From assembly GCF_014773395.1 (NCBI RefSeq), contig NZ_JACXAF010000009.1, positions 145,247-177,246 on the forward strand: a stretch of 32,000 nt of DNA, given 5' to 3'. Under the pieces are notes generated by a model. It was given only the letters and a program-made list of their open reading frames with translations, was not told where the DNA came from and ran no database searches. The translations under genes and the position numbers were made by a program. The stretch comes from Neiella litorisoli (GTDB lineage: Bacteria > Pseudomonadota > Gammaproteobacteria > Enterobacterales > Neiellaceae). Shown here piece after piece: positions 1 through 26,163 of this stretch. The first letter of the stretch is position 1; each line of letters starts with the position of its first letter.

Positions 1-345
1 CGTACGCATTTTGTCGATCCCAAGGATATTACCCGTCTGCTTAATAATCGACGGAGTTGGCGGCGTTCTAAGCGTGGCCAGCGACCAAAATTAGTTGCAG
101 TGACCGTTCAAACCAAAGAGCGCATTGCCGCCTTAGTCGATTTGTTTGGTTATGATTCTGAAAGTGATCTGCTGGTTGAGTTGCTGAATGCCGTAGGAAT
201 GGATCCCGAAACGCTGTCAGATAACACTATCGCCGGCGTACAGGTTTGCGTTCCTGTAGTGTTGCGTGATGAACGGACGGCTGACCAGCTGGTGGCGACA
301 TTAAAGAATCAACTACCCAGCCCATATTGTGATCTGCTTGGCTAG
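1..345 (+). CDS. Hypothetical protein; 3' part of a CDS entering from the left window edge, with a possible ribbon-helix-helix-like segment
   Basis: Frame 1 is open from nt 1 to the TAG at 343-345, so the 100..345 (GTG) ORF in the track is probably an internal piece. A basic stretch RRSWRRSKRGQRPK is followed by KLVAVTVQTKERIAALVDLFGYDSESDLLVELL. That strand-helix-helix pattern is only a pattern-level resemblance to RHH DNA binders. Confidence 0.4.
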   Translation, partial: RTHFVDPKDITRLLNNRRSWRRSKRGQRPKLVAVTVQTKERIAALVDLFGYDSESDLLVELLNAVGMDPETLSDNTIAGVQVCVPVVLRDERTADQLVATLKNQLPSPYCDLLG

Positions 346-1379
346 CTACTCGTGGTACATAATTTCATCGTGTCTGACGCTGTTGCGTAGTTACTACCGT
401 AATCCCGAGCGTTTCGCAGTGTGGTGCGGTATTCAGTAATTAGTTTGATCGCGGTCTTCATCTGCGCGTTGAAGTTAATCGTGTTCTGTTCTGCGCCCTT
501 TGCCATCGGGACATTATTTTCATTCTGTTTTGCTATAGTCGCTGCCGATTCGACAGGCTCTGTGACTGCGCTCTCTGCATTTAGTTCAGCGACACGGGTT
601 TGCAATGTTTGCATCACCGCCCTAATGTCTGGCCTTGAGTTAATGCGAGCCTCATATAAAGCGATGTAGGCAGCATTAGTCGCATCGAGTATGTTTAGCC
701 CTATACCATCAACACCCATTTCATACTTTTTAAGCAGATCAAGAACGCTATCGTGGTTGCTGATAATACTCTCGGTGGCGCTTCGTAATTGCTCCAGTCG
801 TTGCTCGTGCCCTGCAGGTGCTACGACACTGCTCCAATCGATTTTTGATAAGTCAGAGTGGCGCTTCCCCAATGCGTCTCGATACTCATGAAACGTCGTA
901 ATTGTAGGTTCGCGTGGCAATACTAAGGTTCGCGTGGTCAAAATACACTGCATCATTGAGGCAGTATTTTTTAGCGCTATCTTGAGTTCCGCTGGATTGT
1001 TGTATTGCTTGATGCTCGCGAGTCCCGCTATCGTCAACCCACTGGCCTTTAGTAGATCTTCATGGGCGCCAAACGTGGCGGCTGCAGCAGCCACCAACGA
1101 ACCGGCCAGCATCGACATATCTAATATGGCTTCATTTTCATCGGCTTCATTGATTGCGCTCAATAGGTTTTTTTGGAATTGAGCTGTGTATTCGTAGGAT
1201 AAGCACGGTGATAGGCGGTTGCTAATACTCTGTGACGCCGAGCAGTAATCTTGGAGTGTTTTGAGTTTCTCGTATTTATCCTTGGTGTCAGCATTCTCAG
1301 CCGGATCAAGGTTGGGAGGCACAGTTGCGCAACCTAATACCACAGTTGTTGCGCAAGCTAAGGTCAGTCCCTTGAACAT
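342..1379 (-). CDS. Lipoprotein of unknown function, last gene of the Cys-rich protein operon
   Basis: The 345-aa ORF starts MFKGLTLACATTVVLGC, a signal peptide with an L-G-C lipobox. An AAGGAAGGAA Shine-Dalgarno (SD) lies upstream of the ATG at 1377-1379. The body is Ala/Leu-rich and looks helical. It lies 77 bp downstream of the 654-aa gene on the same strand. Confidence 0.75.
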   Translation of the reverse strand: MFKGLTLACATTVVLGCATVPPNLDPAENADTKDKYEKLKTLQDYCSASQSISNRLSPCLSYEYTAQFQKNLLSAINEADENEAILDMSMLAGSLVAAAAATFGAHEDLLKASGLTIAGLASIKQYNNPAELKIALKNTASMMQCILTTRTLVLPREPTITTFHEYRDALGKRHSDLSKIDWSSVVAPAGHEQRLEQLRSATESIISNHDSVLDLLKKYEMGVDGIGLNILDATNAAYIALYEARINSRPDIRAVMQTLQTRVAELNAESAVTEPVESAATIAKQNENNVPMAKGAEQNTINFNAQMKTAIKLITEYRTTLRNARDYGSNYATASDTMKLCTTSS

Positions 1380-1456
1380 GGTGATATTCCTTCCTTGTGG
1401 TCACTTTTTGACCTTAGTAGGAATATCACCTTCTTGCAAGTTCGTACCCGTCCACT

Positions 1457-3421
1457 CTAAAGCAGGGGAATGATCGGTGCTGTCACGACTTTTTCGCAGT
1501 GATCATCGGCTAGGACATATTGATATTCATCATTGGTGCAGGTTCGCAAGGCTGGCTCTGTCACTGTCGTAACGCAACTATCGCCAGATTCCACCATTCC
1601 TGCTGGGCAGCCATTGTCCGATGGCGGTTGCCGGTCAATTTGTAAGCATGAATAACCGCTCAGCGTACCGCCATCAGGACAGACCCACGTCGGCGGTTCC
1701 TCCAGCCAGAATTCACATAGGTTGGTCGAACTATTGAATTCCCATGGCGTCGTATGACATTGCTCGTGAGGCATGGTTCCACCGGTCGTCTTTACGCATT
1801 TTTCGGCGGTAAATCCTCCATATCGAGTCTCAAGTTCCCATCCGGAGGGGCATGTTCCGGATTTATCTATCGGACTGCCAACAAAGCAATAATTGCGCCC
1901 TCCATCGTGGGGGTGGCTTTCAGGGCAGCTACCGTCTAGATTTTTCGGCGTGGCCCCTGCCCGACAACCACCTTCTGGTTGCCGGCCATATCCCTCTGGG
2001 CAATCGATTTGCCGGATCTCAAAACATAGCTCACCATTATAATCATCGGTATTCAACGAATTATGGCCGGATGGAAACGCTCCAGACGCACAGCGGTACT
2101 TATCATAATTGTGATTGCCAAAAATATACTGGCGCCAGCCTTCACATTGGCCGGAACGTGAATTGTAATCAACTCGCCCGCAATCTGGTGATGCACTATA
2201 TGATGTATCCGAAACGCATTCGTTGGCTTGTTCATCAAGCGTATAACCTTCAAGACAGCTCGATGGAACCGCATCATATCGAGTGACATCTTCGCATAGT
2301 GCTGCGTTTCCTTGGACGCTGGTGCCGCCATCATCACAGTAGTGATCTTTGCTCGCGGTGAGTGTTTTCTCACACCGTCCCGTGGCGTCGTTGTACGTGT
2401 AATCGTTCACTGAACAACCGTACGCAATGGGTCTAGTGTTAGCCTCTTTTAAGCAGTTCTCGTGATAGGCATCGAGAAACCAGCCAGTATCACATGAACC
2501 TGGTGTGTTATTCGTGGGACCGTTTTTGCACCAGTGTGTCGTAAGTCCGGTGTTGGCTTGGTACCAACCTTCTGGGCAAGGTTCATCTAAGTCAAGTTGA
2601 ATGCGGTCGACATCGCAATCGCCGACATAGCCGGGATGGTATCCTTCAGGGCAGTTTACTGTGCCAATCAGGTGGCATTGCTCACGAGGAGGATTTGCAT
2701 AGGAGTCGCGTGAGTAACCAGGCGGACAGTTTGTAGTCACATAGGACGTCGTCGACGTCTTCTTTTCGCAGCTGTTACCATCGGTGTTTGAGTATCCGGC
2801 GGGACAGCGATAGGCGGCAGCAACCACAGTGCGCTTCTCGCACTCATCGCTTTGTTCGAGATAGGTGTCGTTACCTTCGCAGTTACTGGTTTTACTAATA
2901 GCCATCTCGCGTGAACACTTGTCACCATTCAGGAAATAGCCGACGAATAGTTCGCAACTCCAGATCGCAGGCTGAATATCGATGCTTTTGCAAATGGATT
3001 CATCGCTCAACTCGTAACCTGATGGACACCAAGTTGCTTGTACTGTGTCAATACCCACCTTCCATGACGCAATGCCTTCGACATGATCGCTGTTTGGATA
3101 GATCGGGATCTTGAAGTACCCCGGCGTCAGGATTTCAATATCGACCAGCTGGGTGATTCCGGGGGGGATCGAGCGGCCATTTACCACAATGCCAAATGGA
3201 CTGTCTTCGGCGACTCTTACTCGCAGTGTGTTGATGCCTCTGGCGAGTAACCCTTTGCTATCTTTGATGTCATTAACCTCAATAAAAGCCATTGGCGAGC
3301 CATCTTGGTAGACAAATGATTGCGCGAAACCGAAGGTATCTTGTATTCCCATGTCGATATCGGATGCCCACGTTGTTCCTATCATCAATGCAGTAAGAAC
3401 TGCGACTATTTGGCGAAACAT
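1457..3421 (-). CDS. Secreted cysteine-rich repeat protein (654 aa), paralogue of the upstream 1122-aa protein
   Basis: Signal peptide MFRQIVAVLTALMIGTTWA. An AAGGAG SD lies 9 nt upstream of the ATG at 3419-3421, and the gap to the upstream stop is 15 nt. The Cys-free N-terminal domain (SDIDMGIQDTFGFAQSFVYQDGSPMAFIE...GIVVNGRSIPPG...FKIPIYPNSDHVEG...W) aligns with the N-terminus of the 3437..6805 product. The rest consists of degenerate two-Cys modules such as CPSGYELSDESIC, CPAGYSNTDGNSC, CPEGYHPGYVGDC and CPSGWELETRYGGFTAEKC. Confidence 0.85.
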   Translation of the reverse strand: MFRQIVAVLTALMIGTTWASDIDMGIQDTFGFAQSFVYQDGSPMAFIEVNDIKDSKGLLARGINTLRVRVAEDSPFGIVVNGRSIPPGITQLVDIEILTPGYFKIPIYPNSDHVEGIASWKVGIDTVQATWCPSGYELSDESICKSIDIQPAIWSCELFVGYFLNGDKCSREMAISKTSNCEGNDTYLEQSDECEKRTVVAAAYRCPAGYSNTDGNSCEKKTSTTSYVTTNCPPGYSRDSYANPPREQCHLIGTVNCPEGYHPGYVGDCDVDRIQLDLDEPCPEGWYQANTGLTTHWCKNGPTNNTPGSCDTGWFLDAYHENCLKEANTRPIAYGCSVNDYTYNDATGRCEKTLTASKDHYCDDGGTSVQGNAALCEDVTRYDAVPSSCLEGYTLDEQANECVSDTSYSASPDCGRVDYNSRSGQCEGWRQYIFGNHNYDKYRCASGAFPSGHNSLNTDDYNGELCFEIRQIDCPEGYGRQPEGGCRAGATPKNLDGSCPESHPHDGGRNYCFVGSPIDKSGTCPSGWELETRYGGFTAEKCVKTTGGTMPHEQCHTTPWEFNSSTNLCEFWLEEPPTWVCPDGGTLSGYSCLQIDRQPPSDNGCPAGMVESGDSCVTTVTEPALRTCTNDEYQYVLADDHCEKVVTAPIIPLL

Positions 3422-3436
3422 ACTGACTTCTCCTTG

Positions 3437-6400
3437 TTAGATCGCGACAAATGGCTCAGTGACCAGCATCTCGCACTGACCCTCAACGCGGTTGTAGATG
3501 AGCCCTTCGTTGCCGCAATCGGCACGTGCACTAACTGTCACCGTTTTGCGACAATAACCGTTATGCTGGTCAGCATAATCAGTCGGACAACCATCTTCTT
3601 GTTTCTGAACATATACATAGCGCCAGCAATTTTGCTTATCCAAGGTATAGTTTTCGGGGCACACGTAGCCGTGTGGCTCGGTGCTGATCAGTTCACAGTG
3701 CCCGTCGACTTCAGATTTACCGTCGTAACAATGTTTGGTGGCTGCTACGGTATTGGTTTGTTGGCAGTAGCTTCCAACAAGGGCCCACCCGTGATCACAA
3801 GTTAGCGAGTAAGGCGTCGTAACAAGCTGGCTACATCGTTCGCCATCAAGAGAGTAAGCACTTGGACATGTTTTATAGGCGGGTTTACTGAGTATTTGCT
3901 CACAACTTGTGCCCACCAGCGACCAGCCTGTATCACAGCTGTATGAAATTGCGCTGCTAGCGGTATGAGTACATCCAGATTCGGTTGTCGCCCAGCCACT
4001 AGCGCAAGATGGAGTCGCTGCGACAGTATCGAGCTTTCTGCATTGCTCTCCGGATAGAGACCACCCGCTGTCGCAACTGACCGAGTACGCCATGGTTCTG
4101 AGCTTTGAGCAGCTAGTCCCATTAAGTGTCCACCCAGTTGGACATGTTTTGGTGGCAGTAGTGGTTAACGTTCTCAGACAGTTAGTACCACTCAGGGTCC
4201 AGCCACTAGAGCAACTGTACGTATAAGAATCGTTGTTGATGATCGTTTTTTGGCACTGCGTACCGTTGAGGGTGTAGCCCGATGAGCAGGTTTTCGTTGC
4301 TGCGATCGTATTAGTTCTTGAGCAGCTGGTGCCATTGAGGCTCCAACCACTGCCGCACGCATAGTCATAACCATCGGTCACTGTTTTTGTGCAGGTGGAG
4401 CCGGACAGGCTATAGCCGCTTGGGCAGACTTTACTTGCAGTCGCAGTGTAGGTTCGTGAACAAGACGTACCAGACAATGACCAACCAGAAGCACACGAAT
4501 GGTCATAACCATCGGTCACTGTTTTTGTGCAGGTGGAGCCGGACAGGCTATAGCCGCTTGGGCAGACTTTACTTGCAGTCGCAGTGTAGGTTCGCGAACA
4601 AGACGTACCAGACAATGACCAACCAGAAGCGCACGAATAGTCATAACCATCGGTTACTGTTTTTGTGCAGGTGGAACCGGACAGGCTATAGCCGCTTGGG
4701 CAAACTTTATTTGCAGTCGCAGTGTAGGTTCGCGAACAAGACGTGCCAGACAATGACCAACCAGAAGCACATGAGTAAGAGATACTTCTCAAGGTGAAAC
4801 GTTCACACTCTCCGCCATTGAGTGCGTAGCCGTTCGAGCAAGTAGCTGTCGCGGCTGAGCTGATAATCTCTTGGCAATAAGTTCCATTTACTAGAGTGCC
4901 GGATGGGCAAGATAGCCCTTCGGCTGGGTATAGTTGGACCAAGTCGCACATGGTTCCATTGAGAACCATTCTGACGTTTGGGCAGCTATATGTCGGTGTC
5001 TGAGTGGTTCTTTTTGCACAGAAGTCCCATGCGAGGCTGTAACCACTAGGACAGCTTTTGGTCGCTGCTTCTGTGCTTGTTTTGGAGCAGGTGGTGCCTG
5101 ATAGGGTGTAGCCGCTATTACAGCTCAGGCTATAGGCCGTCGAGACTAATTTTTGACAAGTCGAGCCGGAGTCCGAGTAGCCACTAGGACAGCTTTTGGT
5201 CGCTGCTGCTGTGCTGGTTTTGGAGCAGGTGGTGCCTGATAGGGTATAGCCACTATTACAGCTCAGGCTATAATCCGTCGAGACTAATTTTTGACAAGTC
5301 GAGCCGGAATCAGAGTAGCCACTAGGGCAGCTTTTGGTCGCTGCTGCTGTGCTGGTTTTGGAGCAGGTGGTGCCTGATAGGGTATAGCCGCTATTACAGC
5401 TCAGGCTATAGGCCGTCGAGACTAATTTTTGACAAGTCGAGCCGGAGTCAGAGTAGCCACTAGGACAGCTTTTGGTCGCTGCTGTCGTCGTTGTCTTAGA
5501 GCATGTGGTACCTGATCGCGTGTAACCACTACTACAGCTATAAGTGATCGATGTAGTCACGACCTCTGATTTGGTACAGTTTGTCCCGGTATCTGCGTAG
5601 CCATTTGGACAGCTTGCCGCGGCAGTGGTTACCGAGCCTTTGGTGCAAGTTGTTCCGCTAAGTGTCCACCCCGATTCGCACTGATATGCGACGGTTTGAG
5701 TGTCAGTCCTTTCGCAGCGATTACCATTGAGCGAATATGATGCGTCGTCACAACTCCGGTCTGCTGCTACCGTATAGTTCATTTCACATGAGGTGCCACT
5801 GAGTGTCCAGCCGCTAGCGCATTTGTACTCATATGGCTGCGTCGTGATCTTTTGGCAAACGGAACCGGTGTTGGTCATGCCAGTCGGACAGCTTTCATCG
5901 GCCGCTACGGTATTTGACTGGGTGCAATTCGTTCCGCTGAGAGTCCAACCTGTGTCACACGTATAGCTATAGGCGACCGTGAGGGTGTCCTCACACCGCT
6001 CACCGCTCAGACTTCCGCTTGAACACACTTTGTCTGCAGCAACGGTGTCCGTTTTCGAGCACTGCGTGCCATCGAGCGACCAACCAGTCTGACACTGGTA
6101 ATCAAGCGGTGCGGTATCAATACGCTGACAATCCGAGCCGGCATCGATGAAGCCTTCAGGGCAAGTGGCTGTCGCGGCTTGAACATCTTGTTGACGGCAA
6201 TCGCCCCCACCATAATCGATCCAACCAACAGGACAGGATGTGGGCATCGGCAACTCATGGATCTGAATGCATTCATCGCCTTCTGCGAGGACAAAGCCCG
6301 CTTCGCATTGCCATGTAACAGCTTCTACCAACAGTTTTTCGCAGTGATCACTCTGCTCGTTGTACCCTGTCGCAGTGAAACCATCACGGCACCAGTCGGC

Positions 6401-6784
6401 AATAATGTCATCAATGGTTGCTTCCCATTGGAGCCGGCCGGTGACATTATCGCTAGCAGGATAAATCGGCAGCTTGACTCTGCCGGGGGTGGTGACATTG
6501 ATGGTTACAGGCACTTCATGCCCTGGCCAAATCGTGGCGCCATTAACGACAATGCCGTATGGCGCATCAGCGCCTAGGCTAACGCGCATAATGCTTTCGC
6601 CACGCGCAGGGGCTCCGCTATCATCCGACAAACCCGTACCCTCGATATACGCCATCGGTTCGCCATTGGCATAACTAAATGAGCGCGGTTTGCCGAAGGT
6701 CTCTTGCGTACCCATGTCGATTTCATTGGCTGCTACGACGCTGTGCAGGCACAGGAGCAACAGAGCTGTCAGACGATAGAGCAT
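3437..6784 (-). CDS. Very large secreted cysteine-rich tandem-module protein (1115 aa from ATG 6784; 1122 aa if the GTG at 6805 is used)
   Basis: One uninterrupted minus-strand ORF. The ATG at 6782-6784 has an AAGGA SD 8 nt upstream and gives the signal peptide MLYRLTALLLLCLHSVVAA. The N-terminal domain is homologous to that of the 654-aa neighbour (NEIDMGTQETFGKPRSFSYANGEPMAYIE...GIVVNGATIWPG...VKLPIYPASDNVTG). It is followed by dozens of roughly 23-aa modules of the form C-x2-G-[WY]-[TS]-L-[SN]-G-[TS]-x-C with Ser/Thr-rich linkers. Confidence 0.9.
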   Translation of the reverse strand: MLYRLTALLLLCLHSVVAANEIDMGTQETFGKPRSFSYANGEPMAYIEGTGLSDDSGAPARGESIMRVSLGADAPYGIVVNGATIWPGHEVPVTINVTTPGRVKLPIYPASDNVTGRLQWEATIDDIIADWCRDGFTATGYNEQSDHCEKLLVEAVTWQCEAGFVLAEGDECIQIHELPMPTSCPVGWIDYGGGDCRQQDVQAATATCPEGFIDAGSDCQRIDTAPLDYQCQTGWSLDGTQCSKTDTVAADKVCSSGSLSGERCEDTLTVAYSYTCDTGWTLSGTNCTQSNTVAADESCPTGMTNTGSVCQKITTQPYEYKCASGWTLSGTSCEMNYTVAADRSCDDASYSLNGNRCERTDTQTVAYQCESGWTLSGTTCTKGSVTTAAASCPNGYADTGTNCTKSEVVTTSITYSCSSGYTRSGTTCSKTTTTAATKSCPSGYSDSGSTCQKLVSTAYSLSCNSGYTLSGTTCSKTSTAAATKSCPSGYSDSGSTCQKLVSTDYSLSCNSGYTLSGTTCSKTSTAAATKSCPSGYSDSGSTCQKLVSTAYSLSCNSGYTLSGTTCSKTSTEAATKSCPSGYSLAWDFCAKRTTQTPTYSCPNVRMVLNGTMCDLVQLYPAEGLSCPSGTLVNGTYCQEIISSAATATCSNGYALNGGECERFTLRSISYSCASGWSLSGTSCSRTYTATANKVCPSGYSLSGSTCTKTVTDGYDYSCASGWSLSGTSCSRTYTATASKVCPSGYSLSGSTCTKTVTDGYDHSCASGWSLSGTSCSRTYTATASKVCPSGYSLSGSTCTKTVTDGYDYACGSGWSLNGTSCSRTNTIAATKTCSSGYTLNGTQCQKTIINNDSYTYSCSSGWTLSGTNCLRTLTTTATKTCPTGWTLNGTSCSKLRTMAYSVSCDSGWSLSGEQCRKLDTVAATPSCASGWATTESGCTHTASSAISYSCDTGWSLVGTSCEQILSKPAYKTCPSAYSLDGERCSQLVTTPYSLTCDHGWALVGSYCQQTNTVAATKHCYDGKSEVDGHCELISTEPHGYVCPENYTLDKQNCWRYVYVQKQEDGCPTDYADQHNGYCRKTVTVSARADCGNEGLIYNRVEGQCEMLVTEPFVAI
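4371..4784. repeat. Three tandem copies of a 138-bp (46-aa) in-frame coding repeat inside the 1122-aa gene
   Basis: Copies start at 4371, 4509 and 4647 (ccatcggtcactgtttttgtgcaggtgg...). Copies 1 and 2 differ at 3 of 138 nt by my count, and copy 3 diverges towards its end. The encoded unit is VCPSGYSLSGSTCTKTVTDGYD[YH]SCASGWSLSGTSCSRTYTATA[SN]K. More degenerate copies flank the array. Confidence 0.9.
5043..5456. repeat. A second array of three tandem 138-bp (46-aa) in-frame coding repeats in the same gene, with a different unit sequence
   Basis: Copies start at 5043, 5181 and 5319, and a degenerate fourth copy starts at 5457 (ccactaggacagcttttggtcgctgc...). Neighbouring copies differ at about 5-8 of 138 nt by my count. 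The encoded unit is SCPSGYSDSGSTCQKLVST[AD]YSLSCNSGYTLSGTTCSKTSTAAATK. Confidence 0.9.
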
Positions 6785-7072
6785 TGCTTTATCCTTAAAG
6801 TCCACTTGTCATTGCAACAGACCCTACGCCAATTCGAATGCAATTAACGGTCATCTATCGAGCCAATTTTTCCGATAATTGATGCATTGAGGTATTTCGT
6901 AAGGCTCTGCTCCGTAGGCAGGTCAGATTTGTCCGTATTTGACGCTTGCCGAGTGCAGCAATGTCGGATCGCGACACCCGTCAACTAATTGGTCGTACCG
7001 AGACAAAAAGCATTGCTGTCTGCCACAGACGCACGTTAAGTTTCTTAACAGCGACAGTCTTGGAGGATTCGC

Positions 7073-7763: not shown

Positions 7764-8687
7764 ATGGCCAGTGAGGCGAACCTGATGGATACAGTACAGG
7801 CGATTAAATTAGCGTTTTACGAAGTGAACGAGGCGGTTAAGGCTCTGCGTGAGTACGTACTTGAGCAGCCTGTTGTGGCCAGTCACTTTTTTGAAATTCC
7901 GCCAGTGGCTCGCGAAGGTATTCGCAATGTCACCACCGCGATTAACGTGACACCGGTTGCCATGCCCATTGCGGTGAGCGCTTGTACCCGCGCTTATGGT
8001 CGTTTCTTTATGGCCAACGATCTGTCGACAAGCTATTCCGGTTTGTATCCAGGTGTCGTGCAGTTGCCTGCTGCTTGCCGTGACGACTTGGCTGCATTGC
8101 TCTTGCAAGTTGAGCACAAAAAGCATCAGTTCAAAGCACTGATCACCGGCGCTCGCAAACAAGGTCAAGCGCGCTGGGAGTTAGTGCATGAACAAGCCTT
8201 TGCCGGCGAGCTGCTCATGACCTTGCATGTCTATCGCCAGATACCTGCCCTACTCAATGACAGCATCATTCAGTCTGTTGGCTGGACCTGGAAGCGCCAA
8301 CCGGTCAGGGAAAAAATGCCGCGAGGTGAAATGACCACACGGATCGCCATCCAGAAAGAGACTACCGATGATCCGCTGTTAGAGCAGGTGTTTGCCGACG
8401 CGATCACGGTGCTCAACAGGTTTGCCGAAGACCGAATGGTCTACAAGTTTTACCCTGATGTATTGGTGCCCATGGTTAATGTGAAACGCCAAGCCCCAGT
8501 ACCGGCCAATGTGCCCGCCAAACAGATGAAAGCAGGTCACTTGCCGTTGTTGATTTGTTCGGACGCTCCGATCCGCTATAACCTCATGCGCAGCTACGTG
8601 CCCAACGGTGGACGTGTCAGGAACGATGGTCGAGCTGCTAAATGGCGGTCTGTGTATTCGCCATTGTCACTCTACGTGGCGGATTAA
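7764..8687 (+). CDS. tus: DNA replication terminus site-binding protein Tus homologue
   Basis: The ORF is 307 aa; E. coli Tus is 309 aa. Blocks that align by eye: the C-terminus SPLSLYVAD vs PRLHLYVAD, ARWELVHEQ vs ARFEWVHRH, VGWTWKRQ vs FGWANKH, LYPGVV vs RLPGVL, and HLPLLI vs PTPLIA. An alternative start at ATG 7785 has a GAGG 8 nt upstream. Confidence 0.85.
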   Translation: MASEANLMDTVQAIKLAFYEVNEAVKALREYVLEQPVVASHFFEIPPVAREGIRNVTTAINVTPVAMPIAVSACTRAYGRFFMANDLSTSYSGLYPGVVQLPAACRDDLAALLLQVEHKKHQFKALITGARKQGQARWELVHEQAFAGELLMTLHVYRQIPALLNDSIIQSVGWTWKRQPVREKMPRGEMTTRIAIQKETTDDPLLEQVFADAITVLNRFAEDRMVYKFYPDVLVPMVNVKRQAPVPANVPAKQMKAGHLPLLICSDAPIRYNLMRSYVPNGGRVRNDGRAAKWRSVYSPLSLYVAD

Positions 8688-15702: not shown

Positions 15703-16056
15703 CTAATCTTCAAAAAGTTTTTCTGCACCAATCAACGGGATCAGTCGCATTAACACATCATCCATCACACCACTTTCAGCAGTCGTGATCAGCTTGGCTT
15801 TTCGGTCAGCCCATGCCAACGTTTGAATCAAGCTAGCGGCAACCACCGACGGTTTATCTAAATTTTTCACCGGCACCTCAGTTGGGCCACCTCGGACGCT
15901 GGTACTAATTGGACAGATGATCACGAGGCCGGTGCGCTTGTTATATTCTTCGCTCGACAAAACAAGAGCTGGCCGACATTTGCCAATCTCTCGCCCTTTA
16001 GTTGGCTCAAAATCAAACCAAATTATGTCGTTGCGTTTGGGGGTAAATCCTGCCAC
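15703..16056 (-). CDS. mazF: MazF/PemK-family endoribonuclease toxin
   Basis: The N-terminal segment RNDIIWFDFEPTKGREIGKCRPALVLSSEEYNKRTGLVIICPIST aligns with E. coli MazF (GDLIWVDFDPTKGSEQAGHRPAVVLSPFMYNNKTGMCLCVPCTT). The GTG start overlaps the mazE stop as TAGTG. Confidence 0.9.
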   Translation of the reverse strand: MAGFTPKRNDIIWFDFEPTKGREIGKCRPALVLSSEEYNKRTGLVIICPISTSVRGGPTEVPVKNLDKPSVVAASLIQTLAWADRKAKLITTAESGVMDDVLMRLIPLIGAEKLFED

Positions 16057-16310
16057 TACTCGCCAAGCTCCTTGCCTGATACTGTCGCCAATTCATCCGC
16101 ATGAGCCGTAAAAGCATCCAAGCCATTAACCAACTCTGCCTCGCTAAATGGAAAACGTTTCTTAGCCTTTGGTGCAGGCGCAATTACAAGCTTTCCAGCT
16201 TGAATCTGCACATCAATCTCAGCACCTTCGGAAAGCTGCAACTGTCGAGCAAAAGCAGCAGGAATAATACTTCCCAAACTGTTTCCGATTTTTCGCACTT
16301 GGGTTCTCAT
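16056..16310 (-). CDS. mazE: MazE/AbrB-fold (SpoVT-AbrB) antitoxin
   Basis: MRTQVRKIGNSLGSIIPAAFARQLQLSEGAEIDVQIQAGKLVIAP matches the MazE/ChpBI swapped-hairpin pattern (VKRWGNSPAVRIPA...DGKLIIEP). It lies immediately upstream of, and overlaps, mazF. Confidence 0.88.
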   Translation of the reverse strand: MRTQVRKIGNSLGSIIPAAFARQLQLSEGAEIDVQIQAGKLVIAPAPKAKKRFPFSEAELVNGLDAFTAHADELATVSGKELGE

Positions 16311-16325
16311 TGAAGCACCTGTATG

Positions 16326-16386
16326 AACATTGTTATTACATTAGTGATTGTACGGACTTTGAGTGGAGTGTCAACATTGTTATAAC
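16326..16386. promoter_or_regulatory. Two direct copies of AACATTGTTAT[TA]AC in the mazEF / T5orf172 divergent promoter region; a candidate MazE(F) operator
   Basis: The copies lie at 16326-16339 and 16373-16386. Each contains the near-palindrome AACAtTGTT. They start 16 nt upstream of the mazE start codon. Confidence 0.45.
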
Positions 16387-16456
16387 CTTGATTCCCTATT
16401 CAAAATTGTGGGCTACTACAATTAACCACAAACAACTAAATTGGCTTGGTGTGTTA

Positions 16457-16789
16457 ATGCCCTGCAAAGTCTATTTGATAGTTAATGACCTAAATGGGTT
16501 CATAAAAATTGGTATCAGCTTCGATCCTCACAAACGAAAAAAAGCACTTGAAAGCGCTTGTGGCTATCGGCTGCGGTTACTTTCCGCTAGAACTCCGAAA
16601 CGAGAAGCTAAAGAGGTAGAGAAAGAGCTTCATTTACTCTTTGGTGAAAACCGGCAGCTAGGAGAGTGGTTTAGCATAAGCGAAAGCGAAGCTAAGGCCG
16701 CATTATTGAAAGCTTGCGGCAATGGCATAAGCTGTACCACTAACACTAAAAGTTGGTGGCAACGTCGACATTTAAGGCGCAGGCGTTAA
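16457..16789 (+). CDS. T5orf172 / GIY-YIG-like domain protein (110 aa)
   Basis: From ATG 16457, the sequence MPCKVYLIVNDLNGFIKIGISFDPHKRKKALE...EAKEVEKELHLLFGENRQLGEWFSISE fits the T5orf172 pattern (vYil...g.iKIG.t....R...l, E..lH..f...r..gEWF). The upstream part of the 16310 ORF looks non-coding. Confidence 0.7.
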   Translation: MPCKVYLIVNDLNGFIKIGISFDPHKRKKALESACGYRLRLLSARTPKREAKEVEKELHLLFGENRQLGEWFSISESEAKAALLKACGNGISCTTNTKSWWQRRHLRRRR

Positions 16790-17580
16790 ATCTTTATTGG
16801 CGCTTTAGTTTGGTAAATATTTTGGTGTGCAGCGTCAAACGCGACCAAATCCAAATCAGAATAAACTAACTGTGACTCAATACAGGTGTGACCTAAAACC
16901 CCCTGAATTGTTTCTTGATCTACTTGTTTTCGTCGTAAGGCATCAGTAACGCTACGCCGCCCTGAATGGCTTGAGCATTGTGGAAACCCAAAATGCTGAT
17001 GCAGTTTGGAAAGGTGAGTTTGTAAGTTTGTGAAAACCAAATAGTCTTTTCCTTTTGACACCTTTCGAGTCGGAGCCCAATGCCCCCATGCGCCAGCATA
17101 AAATCTCGGAAACACGGGGCTATCGGGGTTTAGCCCTCGATAGCGTTTAGACGTTGTGGCCATAATGCTTTTTTCTAAACGGAGGTTAAGCCATGCTTCT
17201 AGCGCATTACGTTGTTGATGGACGACGACCGGAGCAATAGTGGGCAAACTTCCTTTTGTGGCTGCGGCACGAATCCGTGTCATCGCACAAAGCTGACCGT
17301 TCGGATACAAAGCTTCTTTAATCAACCACCCAGCCACTTCTACAGCACGAAAAGCAGACCCATAGCACATCCATAACATGCACTGATCACGCGCCACCAG
17401 CACCGGATCTTTATCCTTTAGATCTAACCGCATTAATAGGGTTTGAAATTCTTTCGGTGTGATCACCCCCGCCTGCTTTGGTCTCCAGCCAGAGGGAGGG
17501 TGAAGTATTTTGCTGAGTGATCCGACCAAGGCTATTCCCCCAATTTCAGTAAAAGCCTTTCTCAAAGCGTTTTTGAACAC
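16786..17580 (-). CDS. Tyrosine recombinase/integrase-like protein, essentially the catalytic domain only (264 aa, GTG start)
   Basis: Catalytic-domain signposts are present: GSAFRAVEV (Arg), SSHSGRRS (H-x-x-R) and LGHTCIESQLVY (His...Tyr). The GTG start directly follows an in-frame TGA, and no N-terminal core-binding domain is apparent. The stop codon overlaps the T5orf172 stop (TTAA). Confidence 0.7.
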   Translation of the reverse strand: MFKNALRKAFTEIGGIALVGSLSKILHPPSGWRPKQAGVITPKEFQTLLMRLDLKDKDPVLVARDQCMLWMCYGSAFRAVEVAGWLIKEALYPNGQLCAMTRIRAAATKGSLPTIAPVVVHQQRNALEAWLNLRLEKSIMATTSKRYRGLNPDSPVFPRFYAGAWGHWAPTRKVSKGKDYLVFTNLQTHLSKLHQHFGFPQCSSHSGRRSVTDALRRKQVDQETIQGVLGHTCIESQLVYSDLDLVAFDAAHQNIYQTKAPIKI

Positions 17581-17674: not shown

Positions 17675-18511
17675 TTAACGTCGCCGGGCAGTAATAACAA
17701 ACCCAACAGTCGAGGTTCCCGATTCATGATCTTCGGAACCCTTAAAGGCAACGTAGGCATGGATTGGCGTGACAGATACAACATCATATCCATCCTCTGC
17801 TAGCGCGTTTGCTTCTAATTCAATCGTTTCTCTAGCGGTAGCAAAGTCAATTTTCAGCCCGTACTTTAGGCCCTTTAGCGTCTGATCACTTTTGACACGC
17901 TCACACCCAAGATCAATGGTCCGGCAAACCACCCGCGGCTTTGCGTTGAGTTCCTTTAAAAGCAGCGTTGTGGCCTGGGTTTTCATGTTGGTCACTTTGC
18001 TTTCCGCAGAAAGGTAACCTTGATTGAATAAGGCTTGAAGCTGTGACAAAACCAATGGGCCTGTTATGCCACTGGGTAAACTATCCAAAACCATGTAGGT
18101 TGGCTCTCCCACTGGCGCAGAGATATTTAGGTGCGAGATCGTATTTGGGGCATGCTCAAGCGCTGCTATGGGTTGCTCTTTATAGCTTGGTTGGACTGAT
18201 GGTGGGAGATCGTAGTGTGGCACTTCCACGGAAGGTGCCACCTGCTCACTGACCGCATTATCTGCTGTTTGCACAATACTGCTATGGGATAAGCGATGGA
18301 CAATGTCACTTAATGACTTATGTCGAGCAAGAACAAGAGAGGCTGCTGCAAAGTCATCGCGGCTGAGCATTGTTTTTTTCGCTAACATGGTGCGTTCGTC
18401 AATCTCCCCCTCTAAAACCATCTTGCGTATCGTATTGCTATCAAACGGCCCTTCGCATGCGCCACTTGGTTGCTTGACATAAAGGCGAAGATTATTGCTG
18501 GTCAAGGCCAT
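17675..18511 (-). CDS. Hypothetical protein (278 aa) with two possible GYF_2-like segments
   Basis: LYVKQPSGACEGPFDSNTIRKMVLEGEIDERTML and YMVLDSLPSGITGPLVLSQLQALFNQGYLSAESKV resemble the G-P-[FL]...L...G-x-[IL] pattern of GYF_2/DUF4339 only at pattern level. The gene overlaps the upstream gene by 20 nt. Confidence 0.55.
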   Translation of the reverse strand: MALTSNNLRLYVKQPSGACEGPFDSNTIRKMVLEGEIDERTMLAKKTMLSRDDFAAASLVLARHKSLSDIVHRLSHSSIVQTADNAVSEQVAPSVEVPHYDLPPSVQPSYKEQPIAALEHAPNTISHLNISAPVGEPTYMVLDSLPSGITGPLVLSQLQALFNQGYLSAESKVTNMKTQATTLLLKELNAKPRVVCRTIDLGCERVKSDQTLKGLKYGLKIDFATARETIELEANALAEDGYDVVSVTPIHAYVAFKGSEDHESGTSTVGFVITARRR

Positions 18512-19436
18512 TTTTTCCCCCTAGCCGTTCGTCCTGTTCAAACCAACGTTTTGCACCAAGCAAGTAGCCTATTCGCTGGCCAGCCAATGCAAGGCGCTCA
18601 ACTAATCGACTATTCAAGGTATCTAACCGCTGGCCTTTGGCATCATTGAGCAGCAACCGAGCCTGTGCAACGGATTCAGATGCCAGTGTTTGCAAATCAA
18701 AACCGGCATCCGTCTGCAACTCGATATCCAAGGAATACGACTCAAGGTTATCGGGCAACGATGGCCAATGACCGGAGCGTAACGCCTGCTCAAAGCTTAA
18801 TTTGCAACTCACCGCATCCTCTTTTAAGCAAAGCTGTTGCTCCATCGGCTGACGCGCACAACTGCTATATCGAAGGACATTGAATGGATGGTGAGCTTGG
18901 ATCACCAAGTAACTGACGAGCATGAGGCTGACGGCCCGACCGCTGGTATCACGATCATCGCCGGCCGCTTGGGCAAAGACGTTAATGGCTGCAAGGTTGG
19001 GAGCATAGCCATTGTCTCCGCATGAGGTGTACATCGCTTGACGCGCTACCACCAACGCGCCGCGCCCATTGGTGAGCTCTTCCAACGTTAACCCGCTATA
19101 ACGCCGAGCAAGTTTTGGCATCGTTGCGCCCAGTAATTCATACAGCTTAGCGATAGGTTGTTGCTGTTGCCGATCGAGCCACACCATCGTCCATGTGAGC
19201 CAGCTACTATTCGGGTGCGATGCCTGTATGTCACTCAGTTCAGGCTGCTGAGTCATCGGCTGGCGCAAGATCTGCTCTAGTGCACTCCGCCGAAACCCAT
19301 TGAGATAATTATTGGCTGTCTCAGCACTGAGAACGACGGCGTCTTCATGCCATTTGGCATAAGTTGTTTGGCTCAGCAGAAGGAAACTGACCATCACTGC
19401 AACTGGCCAACACCTACCAATCATAGCTTTTCTCAT
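18492..19436 (-). CDS. Secreted hypothetical protein (314 aa)
   Basis: Signal peptide MRKAMIGRCWPVAVMVSFLLLSQTTYA. The gene overlaps the transglycosylase gene by 23 nt, suggesting translational coupling. Confidence 0.65.
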   Translation of the reverse strand: MRKAMIGRCWPVAVMVSFLLLSQTTYAKWHEDAVVLSAETANNYLNGFRRSALEQILRQPMTQQPELSDIQASHPNSSWLTWTMVWLDRQQQQPIAKLYELLGATMPKLARRYSGLTLEELTNGRGALVVARQAMYTSCGDNGYAPNLAAINVFAQAAGDDRDTSGRAVSLMLVSYLVIQAHHPFNVLRYSSCARQPMEQQLCLKEDAVSCKLSFEQALRSGHWPSLPDNLESYSLDIELQTDAGFDLQTLASESVAQARLLLNDAKGQRLDTLNSRLVERLALAGQRIGYLLGAKRWFEQDERLGGKNGLDQQ

Positions 19437-19869
19437 AAAGCACCACCTGCTGGTAAGCTTCCATCACACGATACAGGTACGTCACTCTAACTCTTGGCGT
19501 TCTTGAGTTGTAATCACCAACGCCTTCCCACAGCGACCCGTCGCGCTGTTGGATCTTGCGGTCAAGAAACCACATGGACACTTGAATGCTGGCGCATGGA
19601 TCAAACACTAAGGATTTGGCATCGATATCCGGAAAATGCTGCTGGATCAGAGGCAGATTCATGGTGTTTATCTGGGCAACACCTAAGTCATAGGTGCCAT
19701 TGGTATTGGCTTTAATCGTTCCTACGCGGCCGCCTTCGACCATCAACATCGCCTTGGCAACCGCTGGCGGGATCTCATACGCCGTGGCGTGCTGCTCAAT
19801 GCAGCGCTCCATTATCTGCGGATTGGGTTCATAGGGCTCGACGCCCAACGCCAAAAGCATGTCAATCAT
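19414..19869 (-). CDS. Lytic transglycosylase (SLT domain), of the type common in conjugation and type IV secretion or pilus loci
   Basis: AKAMLMVEGGRVGTIKANTNGTYDLGVAQINTMNLP...GVGDYNS carries the catalytic Glu, the G-x-x-Q-I-N block and the Y-N-S block typical of SLT/VirB1-like enzymes. Confidence 0.75.
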   Translation of the reverse strand: MIDMLLALGVEPYEPNPQIMERCIEQHATAYEIPPAVAKAMLMVEGGRVGTIKANTNGTYDLGVAQINTMNLPLIQQHFPDIDAKSLVFDPCASIQVSMWFLDRKIQQRDGSLWEGVGDYNSRTPRVRVTYLYRVMEAYQQVVLYEKSYDW

Positions 19870-22272: not shown

Positions 22273-22827
22273 TTATTCGCTATCAAAGTCCTGTGCTTGA
22301 ACCTCTCGGACCAAACGTACATAGCGGTGCTGATTCACGTCTCGGACAAATTCAGCGCCACTGACGAAATCGATGACTCGACCATTCAAGCTGTCATTGA
22401 CCTTATCATCCGGTGTGGACGAATACGTGACAGCATTTGGGGTGCTCGGAAACACGGTATCGTTAATAGCGGGACTGTAACAGCTGCGCTCAACAATGGT
22501 TTCCAATTCCTTGATGTTGGGCAGACGCCATCCGTCAAATCCACCGTAGCTCTCCGCCTCAGTACCGGCATAGCCATTCATGGCCTCCTCCCATGACTCG
22601 AAATGCGTAGGCTGACCACCACAGGAGCGATTATCTGCGTTCCATGTTTGCCCCACGGTGCAACGTTGCCACATCAAACCTGTGCGAGCATCCACCACAA
22701 TACCGTCATGGCTGAAGACATACTGTTCCAGCTGATTACTCGGTGCGATGGTGGTTTTACAGATCTGAGCCATCGCCGATGAGCTGATCAGTGTCACTGC
22801 TAACAAGGTGCAAATTCTGAATTTCAT
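22273..22827 (-). CDS. Secreted DUF1566 (Lcl C-terminal domain-like) protein (184 aa)
   Basis: The start at ATG 22825-22827 has an AAGGAGAGAG SD and lies 10 nt after the upstream stop. Signal peptide MKFRICTLLAVTLISSSAMA. TGLMWQRCTVGQTW...ESWEEAMNGY...GFDGWRLPNIKELETIV matches the DUF1566 signature. Confidence 0.75.
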   Translation of the reverse strand: MKFRICTLLAVTLISSSAMAQICKTTIAPSNQLEQYVFSHDGIVVDARTGLMWQRCTVGQTWNADNRSCGGQPTHFESWEEAMNGYAGTEAESYGGFDGWRLPNIKELETIVERSCYSPAINDTVFPSTPNAVTYSSTPDDKVNDSLNGRVIDFVSGAEFVRDVNQHRYVRLVREVQAQDFDSE

Positions 22828-22837
22828 GACTCTCTCC

Positions 22838-24847
22838 TTACTCTGACGCTCGCATTGCGCGAACAGGGTGCGCAATCCCTTTATGGCATAACTTGGTCTC
22901 TCCGGTCGCACTATCCACACACCAGACGGACCCTTCATTATCTGCCACCGGGGAGCTGGTTAGATAAGCCCCTGTTTGAGCCGGTTTCGCGAATGTTTCA
23001 GCTTCCGACCAGACTTGCTCAAACTGACCATAGGTACCAGTTACCCAAATCGTCTCGGTCAGCGAAGAGGCGCCAAACATTCTTGCGTCGTTCGGCATAA
23101 ATTCCGGATCGAGTAAGTCAGAATTGTTGATTTCTAGGTTCATTATCGACTTCAACTCACTCGCGTTCGGGAGGCGCCAATCATTGAAGCCACAAATCGC
23201 CAGAGCATTCATCGCTTCGATGTACTCTGCAGTCGTGCAGAACCGTACATCGACATATGAAGCCATGTCGCGCGTCGGGAAGGCACAATTTTCACTGATC
23301 GGCGTACTGAAATTGGTAAAGCTATCACCCGTAGCGCCTTTGCTGCCACCGTTATTGGTGTCGTCGTCACTGTACCAATAGTAACCATAGTTAGCCGCTC
23401 GCCAGTTAAGATGTCCGCTCGCCTGTGCACTAAACGCCGGATAGTCCGGTGTAGAGCGATAATCAACCATGGTGCAATCAGCATCGTCTGATCCATCTCG
23501 ACAGTAGGCTTTTTCGAACTCCGGCCTAAAGTACAACCGCCATTCATCATCGGTCATTCGTGAAGGAAGCATTTGCGGTGACTGTTTCACCTCCGCCACA
23601 ACGCCTGACACGTTATCTTGAATGCATACCCATGAGCTGGCCGAGTTGGGCAACACGTTGCCGTGAATATCTAACTTGGTGAATGAAAACCCTGCCGTGC
23701 CATCTGAGCTACTGGGCTCCGTCGCATCGCGACCATGCAAAGCATCCTCTAGCGGCTCACCAACAAGGGTTTGCACCCCTGTATCGTTGACTTTGGCTCG
23801 GCCAGTGATCACCAGAGAGTGACTTGAATCTTCACCAATAACGCTCAATTGGGGTGCGGTTAACTCAAATACAACCGTCTTGCCCCCTCTGGGCACGCCA
23901 TCATCAATGATGGTCACTGGCACCGACAGAGATTGAGTCAAAGGTGGAATCGTCACAATGTCGCTGGGCAGTTCAAAATCAGCGCCTCTGCGACCCGTCC
24001 CACTTGTGTTGAGTCGGACTTCTGTAGTCAATGCGCTAAGGTGGCTCATTTTTACTTCCAAGAGCGCCTCCCCGCCCGACACGCTGACAAGCGATTCTTC
24101 CGCCACAAACTCTAAAGCAGGCACCGGATCGTCGTCTCGAATGGTGATAAACACTTCACTGTTGGTGCTTGTAATCACCATCCCTTCACTGGGTGAGTGC
24201 AATTGCAATTTCAATCGGCGATCTTGTTGCAATATATCGTTGCCAATCGTATTCACTGAAAACGTCGCTTGCCGTGAGCCTGTTTCGAAGATCACCTCTT
24301 TGTCAAAACCGACATAGTCAACGCTCTCAATGGCCGAGTCGTCAACTGTTCGCACATTGACTCGATACTCCGTTGTAGCCACCGAATCCAATCGCAAACC
24401 GACAATTAATTCTGAAAACTCATTTAGCTTTCCTTCGGTGACATTGTCGCCACTCATCGAAACCCGAACTTCGGGGATCGGTGTGGCTTCGACGGTCAAC
24501 TCTTGCTCTAGCGTATTTTTTGCCCCGTCATCATCTTCAACGGTCAGCTTTACCATATAGACACCTGGCTCAGCGTAAGTGTGCTGAACGCTGGAGCGCG
24601 TTGCTGACTCACCATCACCAAACTCCCACTCATAGCTGGCAATCCGGCCGTCACTATCGCTCGAATCACGACCATCAAAACTGACATCTTGATAATTGGC
24701 ATCGATACTAATCGTCGCGACAGGAGCCACATTCGAACCTGTTGGATTGGTCGAATTGCCGCCACCATTACCTCCGCCTCCACCACCGCATCCAGTTACC
24801 ACCCCAAGAATGCTGATGGCCATGACGCTCATAAGAAACTTGTTCAT
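22838..24847 (-). CDS. Surface lipoprotein with PKD, two Calx-beta and a C-terminal DUF1566 domain (669 aa)
   Basis: The lipobox is ISILGVVTGC, followed by a Gly-rich linker. PKD domain: VSFDGRDSSDSDGRIASYEWEFGDGES...HTYAEPGVYMVKLTVEDDDG. Calx-beta domains: VRTVDDSAIESVDYVGFDKEVIFETGSRQATFSVNTIGND and RRGADFELPSDIVTIPPLTQSLSVPVTIIDDG. DUF1566 domain: AICGFNDWRLPNASELKSIMN. Confidence 0.85.
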   Translation of the reverse strand: MNKFLMSVMAISILGVVTGCGGGGGGNGGGNSTNPTGSNVAPVATISIDANYQDVSFDGRDSSDSDGRIASYEWEFGDGESATRSSVQHTYAEPGVYMVKLTVEDDDGAKNTLEQELTVEATPIPEVRVSMSGDNVTEGKLNEFSELIVGLRLDSVATTEYRVNVRTVDDSAIESVDYVGFDKEVIFETGSRQATFSVNTIGNDILQQDRRLKLQLHSPSEGMVITSTNSEVFITIRDDDPVPALEFVAEESLVSVSGGEALLEVKMSHLSALTTEVRLNTSGTGRRGADFELPSDIVTIPPLTQSLSVPVTIIDDGVPRGGKTVVFELTAPQLSVIGEDSSHSLVITGRAKVNDTGVQTLVGEPLEDALHGRDATEPSSSDGTAGFSFTKLDIHGNVLPNSASSWVCIQDNVSGVVAEVKQSPQMLPSRMTDDEWRLYFRPEFEKAYCRDGSDDADCTMVDYRSTPDYPAFSAQASGHLNWRAANYGYYWYSDDDTNNGGSKGATGDSFTNFSTPISENCAFPTRDMASYVDVRFCTTAEYIEAMNALAICGFNDWRLPNASELKSIMNLEINNSDLLDPEFMPNDARMFGASSLTETIWVTGTYGQFEQVWSEAETFAKPAQTGAYLTSSPVADNEGSVWCVDSATGETKLCHKGIAHPVRAMRASE

Positions 24848-25388: not shown

Positions 25389-26099
25389 TCATTGCGTTGC
25401 AATCGCTAGGTCCGAATCAGGCATCGACTGGCCTTCTGCTTCCACTAAGGTTCCTTCTGCCACAGCGACTCGCTCAGCTTCTCGTTGACGCTTCTGCTCA
25501 AGACGGATTTGTAAGTCATCAAACGCTGCTTTAATGGTAGTGTCATGGGCAGCCGATTTGCGTTGTTTCAATACCTGGTTGAATTCATCATATGGCAACT
25601 TCAGCATAACAAATGCGTGATAGGCACCGTCTACGACACGGACTTCTTGCGAGACCACGTCGTAACCAACAACCGAGACATCTGCCACCAACTTATCGAT
25701 TAATACCGTCGTTTGCTCATGTACATCACCATGCACACCTTCTTGGACAAACATTCGTTCAGAGCCAGACAGCTCTTGTTCGTACTGTTTTGCCAGCTCA
25801 AATTCGGCAAACACCTTCGCTTTACGAAGCGCCATCCCATACTGGGAGCTAGTGCTCATCGCCACACCATAAAACCCAGTTGCGTCAGCCTTCGGTGGAT
25901 CCAACATCCAGTCCGGTGCTTGCTCAAGCTCTTGCTCCAATCGCTCTTGCTCTAATTCTCGACGCTCTTCTGCTAACTCAGCCCGCAGCATCTCCAAGTC
26001 CGCTTGCTGTTTCACTAGATCTTCTGCTGTGGGTGTTGAACTGCATCCTGAAAGCAGCGCGAAGCCAACTCCCACGATAGCTAAAACTTTGTAATGCAT
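25389..26099 (-). CDS. Lipoprotein, possibly LPP20-like (236 aa from ATG 26099)
   Basis: The ATG at 26097-26099 has an AAGGTG SD; the track start at 26108 is a GTG. The lipobox is FALLSGC. A charged coiled-coil (EERRELEQERLEQELEQ) is followed by PDWMLDPP...GFYGVAMSTS...ALRKAKVFAEFELAKQ, which is reminiscent of LPP20-family lipoproteins. The family call is weak. Confidence 0.7.
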   Translation of the reverse strand: MHYKVLAIVGVGFALLSGCSSTPTAEDLVKQQADLEMLRAELAEERRELEQERLEQELEQAPDWMLDPPKADATGFYGVAMSTSSQYGMALRKAKVFAEFELAKQYEQELSGSERMFVQEGVHGDVHEQTTVLIDKLVADVSVVGYDVVSQEVRVVDGAYHAFVMLKLPYDEFNQVLKQRKSAAHDTTIKAAFDDLQIRLEQKRQREAERVAVAEGTLVEAEGQSMPDSDLAIATQ

Positions 26100-26163
26100 A
26101 ATGGTCACCTTTCGTTATTTATGGTCTTGCACCACTCTATGCTCACACAGCTTTAAAGTGGCG

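Follow-up and report, generated by a model that had tools for sequence, protein, structure and literature searches.

Transfer of IncHI and IncA/C resistance plasmids depends on surface-exposed proteins of the RSP type, a need that was recognized only recently; targeting them has been proposed as a way to curb plasmid spread. RSP, RSP2 and their IncA/C homologue (ALG87338.1) are secreted proteins that bind to flagella as well as to conjugative pili. Conjugation requires them, for the IncA/C homologue at 25 °C (PMC8730810). RSP2 co-precipitates with RSP, and its extracellular appearance depends on RSP; the protein is 794 amino acids (aa) long, and its published domain map stops at residue 693 (PMC8730810). 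TraN is a Cys-rich, beta-rich surface protein, all cysteines of which could be disulfide-bonded (PMC9246713). Here, we compare these systems with a locus of Neiella litorisoli HB171785. The stretch analyzed (contig NZ_JACXAF010000009.1, positions 145,247 to 177,246; 32 kb, hereafter the window) holds three adjacent genes, A, B and C, encoding two paralogous repeat proteins with a head-plus-stalk architecture and a predicted lipoprotein. Judged by homology, A and B combine one domain of RSP2 with a TraN-type repeat and belong to an unannotated family that accompanies RSP and RSP2 in MOBH elements with F-type type IV secretion systems (T4SS) of aquatic Gammaproteobacteria.

The relationship to RSP2 resides in the head. 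A head profile built from sequences of the window and of marine origin, with no IncHI sequence included, matches residues 689-794 of RSP2 from the IncHI1 plasmid R27 at 60.3 bits. Relatives are found only by exhaustive HMMER profile search, which yields 234 cluster representatives of head-bearing proteins among 1.84 billion representatives; a word-indexed search with the head only returns no match. In these proteins, the head occupies three distinct positions. It is located directly after the signal peptide and ahead of the Cys modules in A, B and the 3386-aa protein P0152, at the extreme C-terminus of ~800-aa proteins with the order DUF4165-Big_3_2-Big_3_3, among them R27 RSP2, and, in P0013, P0139 and P0146, after a Big_3 body and ahead of a stalk of Cys modules. 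The head was also considered as a diverged DUF4165, a candidate rejected at an hhalign probability of 0.45%.

The stalk, in turn, provides the relationship to TraN, through a module that is more widespread than the head. A search with A returns 254 proteins, and most of the 120 matches listed carry the Pfam TraN domain PF06986. Sphingomonad TraN proteins carry 19-20 copies of the module in an array ahead of the TraN domain, and the module occurs as well in RHS proteins and other surface proteins, including a membrane-anchored Firmicute-like protein (P0065, P0068). The module, which a preliminary description of the window could not place in any bacterial family, is hence the main N-terminal repeat of many PF06986 TraN proteins. 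The shared repeat might suggest that A and B are themselves highly divergent TraN, i.e., outer-membrane proteins of mating-pair stabilization, as most of the best matches to A among those listed are PF06986 proteins sharing the module, and A/B give a weak match to NCBIfam NF009017 (22 bits, E = 5e-5). However, the cut-off of that model is 796 bits, no PF06986 match is obtained at E <= 1, and the similarity is confined to the repeats, which sit N-terminal to the TraN domain. Moreover, the relatives carry a separate, genuine TraN gene a few genes downstream, after TraU. With the defining domain absent from A and B, this reading is effectively refuted, and we consider it extremely improbable. Readings as RHS toxins or phage proteins were rejected as well, given that neither A nor B contains a toxin domain or matches a PHROG.

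The modules also resemble part of an EGF domain. Against the Pfam cEGF family (PF12662, cut-off 26.6 bits), A and B score 11.8 and 12.7 bits and stay below threshold, and the relatives P0003 and P0068 exceed it at 32.1 and 54.7 bits. Their passing of the cut-off supports the analogy with an EGF hairpin that had been drawn before from the Cys pattern. In Pfam, NCBIfam and PHROGs, no family reaches its threshold for A, B or C, and searches of PDB sequences with A and the head profile give spurious matches only (OspA low-complexity sequence and ribosomal protein S9). No family model exists for the head domain or for the module, and we found no literature on either. Head and module can thus each be linked to a characterized family, an outcome that the preliminary description had in part named as speaking against its reading, while neither is so far annotated or characterized as such.

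Comparison of the two large proteins offers a greater level of detail about this architecture (Table 1). Aligned over their whole length, A and B match at E = 7e-51 (BLASTP); their heads are 48% identical and Cys-free in both. The N-termini are hydrophobic and signal-like by inspection, with MLYRLTALLLLCLHSVVAA followed by NEIDMG in A and MFRQIVAVLTALMIGTTWA followed by SDIDMG in B. After the signal peptide, A contains 84 cysteines, two for each of its 42 modules, and their spacing alternates almost perfectly between 11 and 12, giving a 23-aa period. This regularity is far beyond chance. B has 40 cysteines in 20 modules with looser spacing. A hidden Markov model built from 31 canonical A modules has the consensus ATKSCPSGWSLSGTTCSKTTTTA. 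Tandem DNA arrays are absent from gene B, so that homogenization is confined to A. In an AlphaFold2 model of the head with five modules (mean predicted local distance difference test score, pLDDT, of 78), the head folds as an all-beta domain (pLDDT 82-93), and each module as a beta-hairpin (pLDDT 71-89). The signal peptides, the paralogy and the head-plus-stalk layout that the preliminary description had reported are therefore all borne out, the former by inspection.

Downstream of the last Cys, proteins of the head-and-stalk family end in a short tail of the form C-x(3-5)-[VIL]-x-[TE]-P-x(1-4), as in ...CKAVVNTPKL and ...CEKVVTAPIIPLL. Its last residue is usually hydrophobic (L, F, I or Y), and the P0001 group ends in Q. 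In two Shewanella fusion proteins described below, the position of the tail runs on into RSP. The tail could serve as a docking or sorting signal. Some stalks of the family are extremely expanded, with P0152 reaching 3386 aa and 245 cysteines, P0146 reaching 2368 aa and the product of L001 11974..21777 reaching 3267 aa; cysteine counts such as that of P0152 imply predicted rods many times longer than that of A.

The genomic surroundings of the relatives point at the same RSP system. Nine independent contexts could be read, namely plasmids of Shewanella aestuarii and S. algae, a plasmid of Alteromonas mediterranea, and six families of metagenomic contigs. In every one of them, a ~1400-aa Big_3_3 protein homologous to RSP lies beside the head-and-stalk genes or is fused to them. 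An S26 signal peptidase and TrbC are close by in eight of the nine, and six show the S26-TrbC-TraU-TraN block in full, a view limited by the ends of the sequences, which fall inside TraU in L003 and inside TrbC in L019. The remaining locus, L018, is rearranged, as it has the RSP homologue, a TraU gene upstream only, and no peptidase block. All nine relatives were counted as lying in or near a MOBH transfer region. The gene order of the block mirrors that of R27 (rsp-trhF-trhW-trhU-trhN), and the ~1400-aa neighbors are homologous to R27 RSP along its entire length (E 1e-104 to 1e-155).

Two of these contexts display an even closer association. Each of the two Shewanella plasmids encodes one giant protein, of 3267 and 2494 aa, consisting of the head, 25-42 modules and a C-terminal part of ~1350 aa homologous to RSP, which by sequence makes these giants natural fusions of head and stalk with RSP. 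In L018 and L019, tandem head-and-stalk paralogues (789-799 aa, then 669-686 aa) precede the RSP homologue in an arrangement like that of A and B. Of the two genes of these loci, the one in second position resembles B more (E 2e-39) than the first does (2.7e-21). Together, these observations indicate that the tandem pair is old and recurrent, in agreement with the earlier proposal of an old duplication followed by homogenization in the large gene only.

Two further gene types were observed around the relatives. M23 peptidase genes directly precede the head-and-stalk genes in L018 (6492..7409) and L019 (9174..9998), and in L017 such a gene (1391..2680) lies ~3 kb upstream of the RSP-like gene preceding P0013. 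The peptidase may be a cell-wall remodeling partner of the head-and-stalk cassette; the window has no M23 peptidase gene. Genes for the RNA-guided nucleases IscB and TnpB (OrfB_IS605/Cas12f-like) are found a few kb from the RSP/head-and-stalk cassette in L001 (3174..4412), L017 (3672..4790) and L018 (2007..3062).

Based on the homologies of head and module, the synteny and the natural fusions, we consider it likely that the head-and-stalk family as a whole is a conjugation accessory. For the Neiella pair itself, we assign a probability of about 0.5 to the reading that A and B are disulfide-stapled fibrous proteins of the family associated with the RSP/RSP2 'mating adhesins' and promote contact for conjugation. 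The export route, disulfides, docking, ligand and role in conjugation can then be pictured as follows. A and B would be exported by the Sec pathway and folded oxidatively, one disulfide closing each cEGF-like beta-hairpin. The resulting rod of 20-42 hairpins would act as a rigid spacer behind a beta-sandwich head of ~110 aa. At its C-terminal end, the rod would dock on an RSP-type protein on the surface of the donor or on the pilus, a connection that is covalently continuous in the Shewanella proteins. The head, displayed distally, would have a pilus, a flagellum or the surface of the recipient as its ligand, and this binding would bring about the cell-cell contact needed for conjugation in liquid. 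The Neiella pair is uncoupled from RSP and tra genes; its partner might be encoded on another part of the 184-kb contig, or A and B may now act as a stand-alone adhesin.

Several observations weigh against a conjugative role of the Neiella copy. Within the window, there is no RSP homologue, S26 peptidase, TrbC, TraU or TraN. Gene C is followed by a convergent gene, and since that gene ends at 345, nothing tra-like lies immediately downstream of C. The genome and metagenome collections scanned contain no close relative of the A/B pair, and the AlphaFold2 model of head and modules has no significant match among solved or viral structures. Just upstream of gene A and divergent from it lies a gene for a Tus-like protein of the kind that binds DNA replication termini (Pfam Ter, 9.4e-22), which is only ~20% identical to the Tus proteins of Aeromonas and Enterobacter plasmids. 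Such a distant Tus-like neighbor may mean that the locus is chromosomal; the gene may mark a plasmid fork trap or the terminus region of a chromosome.

As the main rival reading, A and B might form a stand-alone surface adhesin or matrix fiber of Neiella together with lipoprotein C, with no role in DNA transfer; a module derived from conjugation would then have been domesticated as part of an adhesion island, chromosomal or accessory. A window with neither tra nor RSP genes, an operon closed by the convergent gene and a Tus-like neighbor that does not look plasmid-like all fit this picture, as do the lineage-specific C, which is preceded by a Shine-Dalgarno sequence of its own and by no terminator-like site, the adhesin-like genes with PKD/Calx-beta/Lcl_C and Lcl_C domains nearby, and the presence of the module in surface proteins that have no connection with conjugation (P0065, P0068). 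However, linkage to RSP in nine of nine readable relatives and to tra genes in eight of nine argues against it, and the region bears marks of mobile elements (integrase, PemK toxin, SLT protein, LPP20-like backbone gene). In addition, C has no homologues, so a partnership with it receives no support from conservation. We regard a stand-alone adhesin as possible, albeit rather unlikely; a surface or adhesin role in the broader sense, as suggested in the preliminary description, is plausible.

The lipoprotein deserves separate consideration. By inspection, its N-terminus, MFKGLTLACATTVVLGC followed by ATV with Cys17, fits the lipobox [LVI][ASTVIL][GAS]C. Among 5.8 billion proteins, C matches itself only and is thus an ORFan; a tblastn search of plasmids gives no match, and C shows no similarity to the neighbors of the head-and-stalk relatives or to the R27 lipoprotein. 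It is predicted to be all-helical, but in a single-sequence model whose pLDDT of 43.5 makes it unreliable. In the relatives, the slot corresponding to C is filled by the RSP homologue. The expected partner lipoprotein, and with it the conservation of the three genes together in other genomes, is therefore not recovered, and comparison of the loci indicates that C is not a conserved partner of the head-and-stalk genes.

The uncoupling of the pair from its usual neighbors can also be read as decay, A and B being the functionless remnant of a conjugative element that has lost its RSP and tra genes. The degenerate modules of B and the many small unannotated open reading frames (ORFs) and mobile-element genes of the window would be in line with such a loss. 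Nevertheless, the two ORFs, 3.3 and 2.0 kb long, are uninterrupted, have good Shine-Dalgarno sequences and keep every Cys pair, and the arrays of A are actively homogenized at 91-96% identity. Degeneracy of the B type is, moreover, common to second-position paralogues in loci that look functional. A decaying remnant thus appears improbable.

The organization of the three genes is compatible with expression as a unit. All are co-directional on the minus strand, with gaps of 15 nt between A and B and 77 nt between B and C, in accordance with the preliminary description. A scan for promoters and terminators, otherwise uninformative, detected no terminator-like site on the coding strand in either gap, which makes co-transcription of A, B and C plausible. 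Gene A more probably starts at ATG 6784 than at GTG 6805, as this codon, Met8 of the GTG-started frame, has an AAGGA Shine-Dalgarno sequence 8 nt upstream; the corresponding sequences are AGGAG for gene B and AAGGAAGG for gene C. Genes B and C, located on the 184-kb contig that bears IC617_08740/08745, correspond to WP_191144620.1 and WP_191144619.1, both annotated as 'hypothetical protein', and UniRef names the gene C product 'Lipoprotein'.

Table 1. Coordinates of genes A, B and C, of the segments of their products, and of other genes in the window
Feature	Position	Strand	Description
Gene A	3437..6805	-	1122 aa from GTG 6805; likely true start ATG 6784, giving 1115 aa
A signal-peptide-like segment	6728..6784	-	MLYRLTALLLLCLHSVVAA, by inspection
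A head	6392..6727	-	112 aa, Cys-free, all-beta; homologous to RSP2 C-terminal domain
A stalk	3473..6391	-	42 modules of ~23 aa, one Cys pair each; 973 aa
Tandem DNA array in A	5039..5539	-	138-nt unit (46 aa, two modules), 3.6 copies, 91% identity
Tandem DNA array in A	4356..4771	-	138-nt unit (46 aa, two modules), 3.0 copies, 96% identity
A C-terminal tail	3440..3472	-	EMLVTEPFVAI
Gene B	1457..3421	-	654 aa; signal peptide, head, 20 degenerate two-Cys modules and tail
B head	3029..3364	-	112 aa, 48% identical to A head
B stalk	1496..3028	-	20 looser two-Cys modules; 511 aa
B C-terminal tail	1460..1495	-	Conserved short tail after last Cys
Gene C	342..1379	-	345-aa predicted lipoprotein; lipobox VLGC, Cys17 at 1329..1331
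Convergent gene	1..345	+	C-terminal 114 codons; enters from window edge, bounds operon
Tus-like protein gene	7764..8687	+	Pfam Ter
Mobile-element cluster	15703..17580		Three genes, listed below
PemK/MazF toxin gene	15703..16056		
T5orf172/MUG113 gene	16310..16789	+	GIY-YIG-like
Phage-integrase-family gene	16786..17580		Short
SLT region	17675..19869	-	SLT gene, then genes for a 314-aa unknown protein and a GYF_2-domain protein
SLT lytic transglycosylase gene	19414..19869	-	
Lcl_C protein gene	22273..22938	-	221 aa
Adhesin-like gene	22838..24847	-	669 aa; PKD, Calx-beta and Lcl C-terminal domains
LPP20-family lipoprotein gene	25389..26108	-	41-52% identical to conserved MOBH plasmid backbone gene

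Beyond the three genes, the window resembles accessory or mobile DNA, judging from its integrase-family gene, PemK/MazF toxin, T5orf172 gene, SLT transglycosylase and LPP20-like lipoprotein. The G+C content is 0.43-0.46 between ~10 and 17 kb, compared with 0.48-0.53 elsewhere. Genes of the SLT type are a usual feature of T4SS or conjugative regions; the window showed no further recognizable T4SS gene. Homologues of the LPP20-like gene lie a few kb from head-and-stalk/RSP genes on MOBH plasmids of Shewanella, Alteromonas, Aeromonas and Vibrio, and it is the only clear backbone gene common to the window and these plasmids. Two secreted adhesin-like genes, encoding the 669-aa and 221-aa Lcl_C proteins, point to a possible surface-protein cluster in this part of the window. 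Scans for tRNA genes and Rfam families were empty.

The fusions in the family run both ways, from an RSP2-like body through the head into the stalk and from head and stalk into RSP, which hints at a linear modular fiber. We tentatively hypothesize that head-and-stalk proteins might be an unrecognized third component of the extracellular RSP/RSP2 apparatus, forming, outside the MOBH donor, a fiber that would run from the RSP2 body through the head and the Cys-hairpin rod to RSP. The 23-aa one-disulfide hairpin would then be a widespread, unnamed 'rigid spacer' repeat that also extends TraN, and the Neiella fiber might have been re-anchored via a novel lipoprotein. The unannotated C-terminal domain of RSP2 defines a wider family, joined to a TraN-type disulfide-hairpin rod and at times fused to RSP, and this family leads to testable hypotheses on how the extracellular mating apparatus is assembled. 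The stalk repeat, common to bacterial TraN, RHS and other surface proteins, merits a family model of its own.

Set against the known systems, A and B are like fibrillar adhesins in several respects: the stalk is long and repetitive, the terminal domain is small and globular, a signal peptide is present, and the repeats are prone to recombination. In contrast to these adhesins, they have no recognizable anchor (LPXTG, autotransporter or T1SS signal) and no known adhesive domain, and their stalk unit is a 23-aa disulfide hairpin instead of an Ig-like domain. With cEGF and EGF domains, the module has the pattern C-x2-G-[YFW]-x-L-x-G-x2-C in common. An EGF domain, however, has three disulfides (six Cys), whereas each 23-aa module has exactly two Cys and A/B modules show no calcium-binding consensus; because of its single Cys pair, the module is not an EGF domain. 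The ~23-aa two-Cys module is likewise common to A, B and the N-terminal arrays of many TraN proteins, which differ from A and B in their defining C-terminal domain. R27 TrhN and the TraN of a marine MOBH element (L004), on the other hand, are devoid of canonical modules.

Similarity to RSP (R27 R0009, 1432 aa, 'IncHI-type conjugal transfer protein RSP') is one of context. Homologues of RSP adjoin or, in Shewanella, continue the head-and-stalk proteins and lie upstream of the S26 peptidase, TrbC/TrhW, TraU and TraN, the same slot as in R27, whereas A and B themselves have no sequence similarity to RSP. With RSP2 (R27 R0055), the similarity extends to the protein itself, as its C-terminal domain of ~105 aa, following Big_3_3, is homologous to the A/B head. 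The IncHI and IncC proteins contain DUF4165, Big_3_2 and Big_3_3, for which A and B give no Pfam match; the head is C-terminal in RSP2 and N-terminal in A and B; and the Cys-hairpin rod of A and B contrasts with zero modules in RSP2. Nevertheless, relatives of RSP2 and of A and B both occur on MOBH plasmids, and the two architectures are bridged by P0013, P0139 and P0146, in which an RSP2-like body is followed by the head and then by the Cys stalk.

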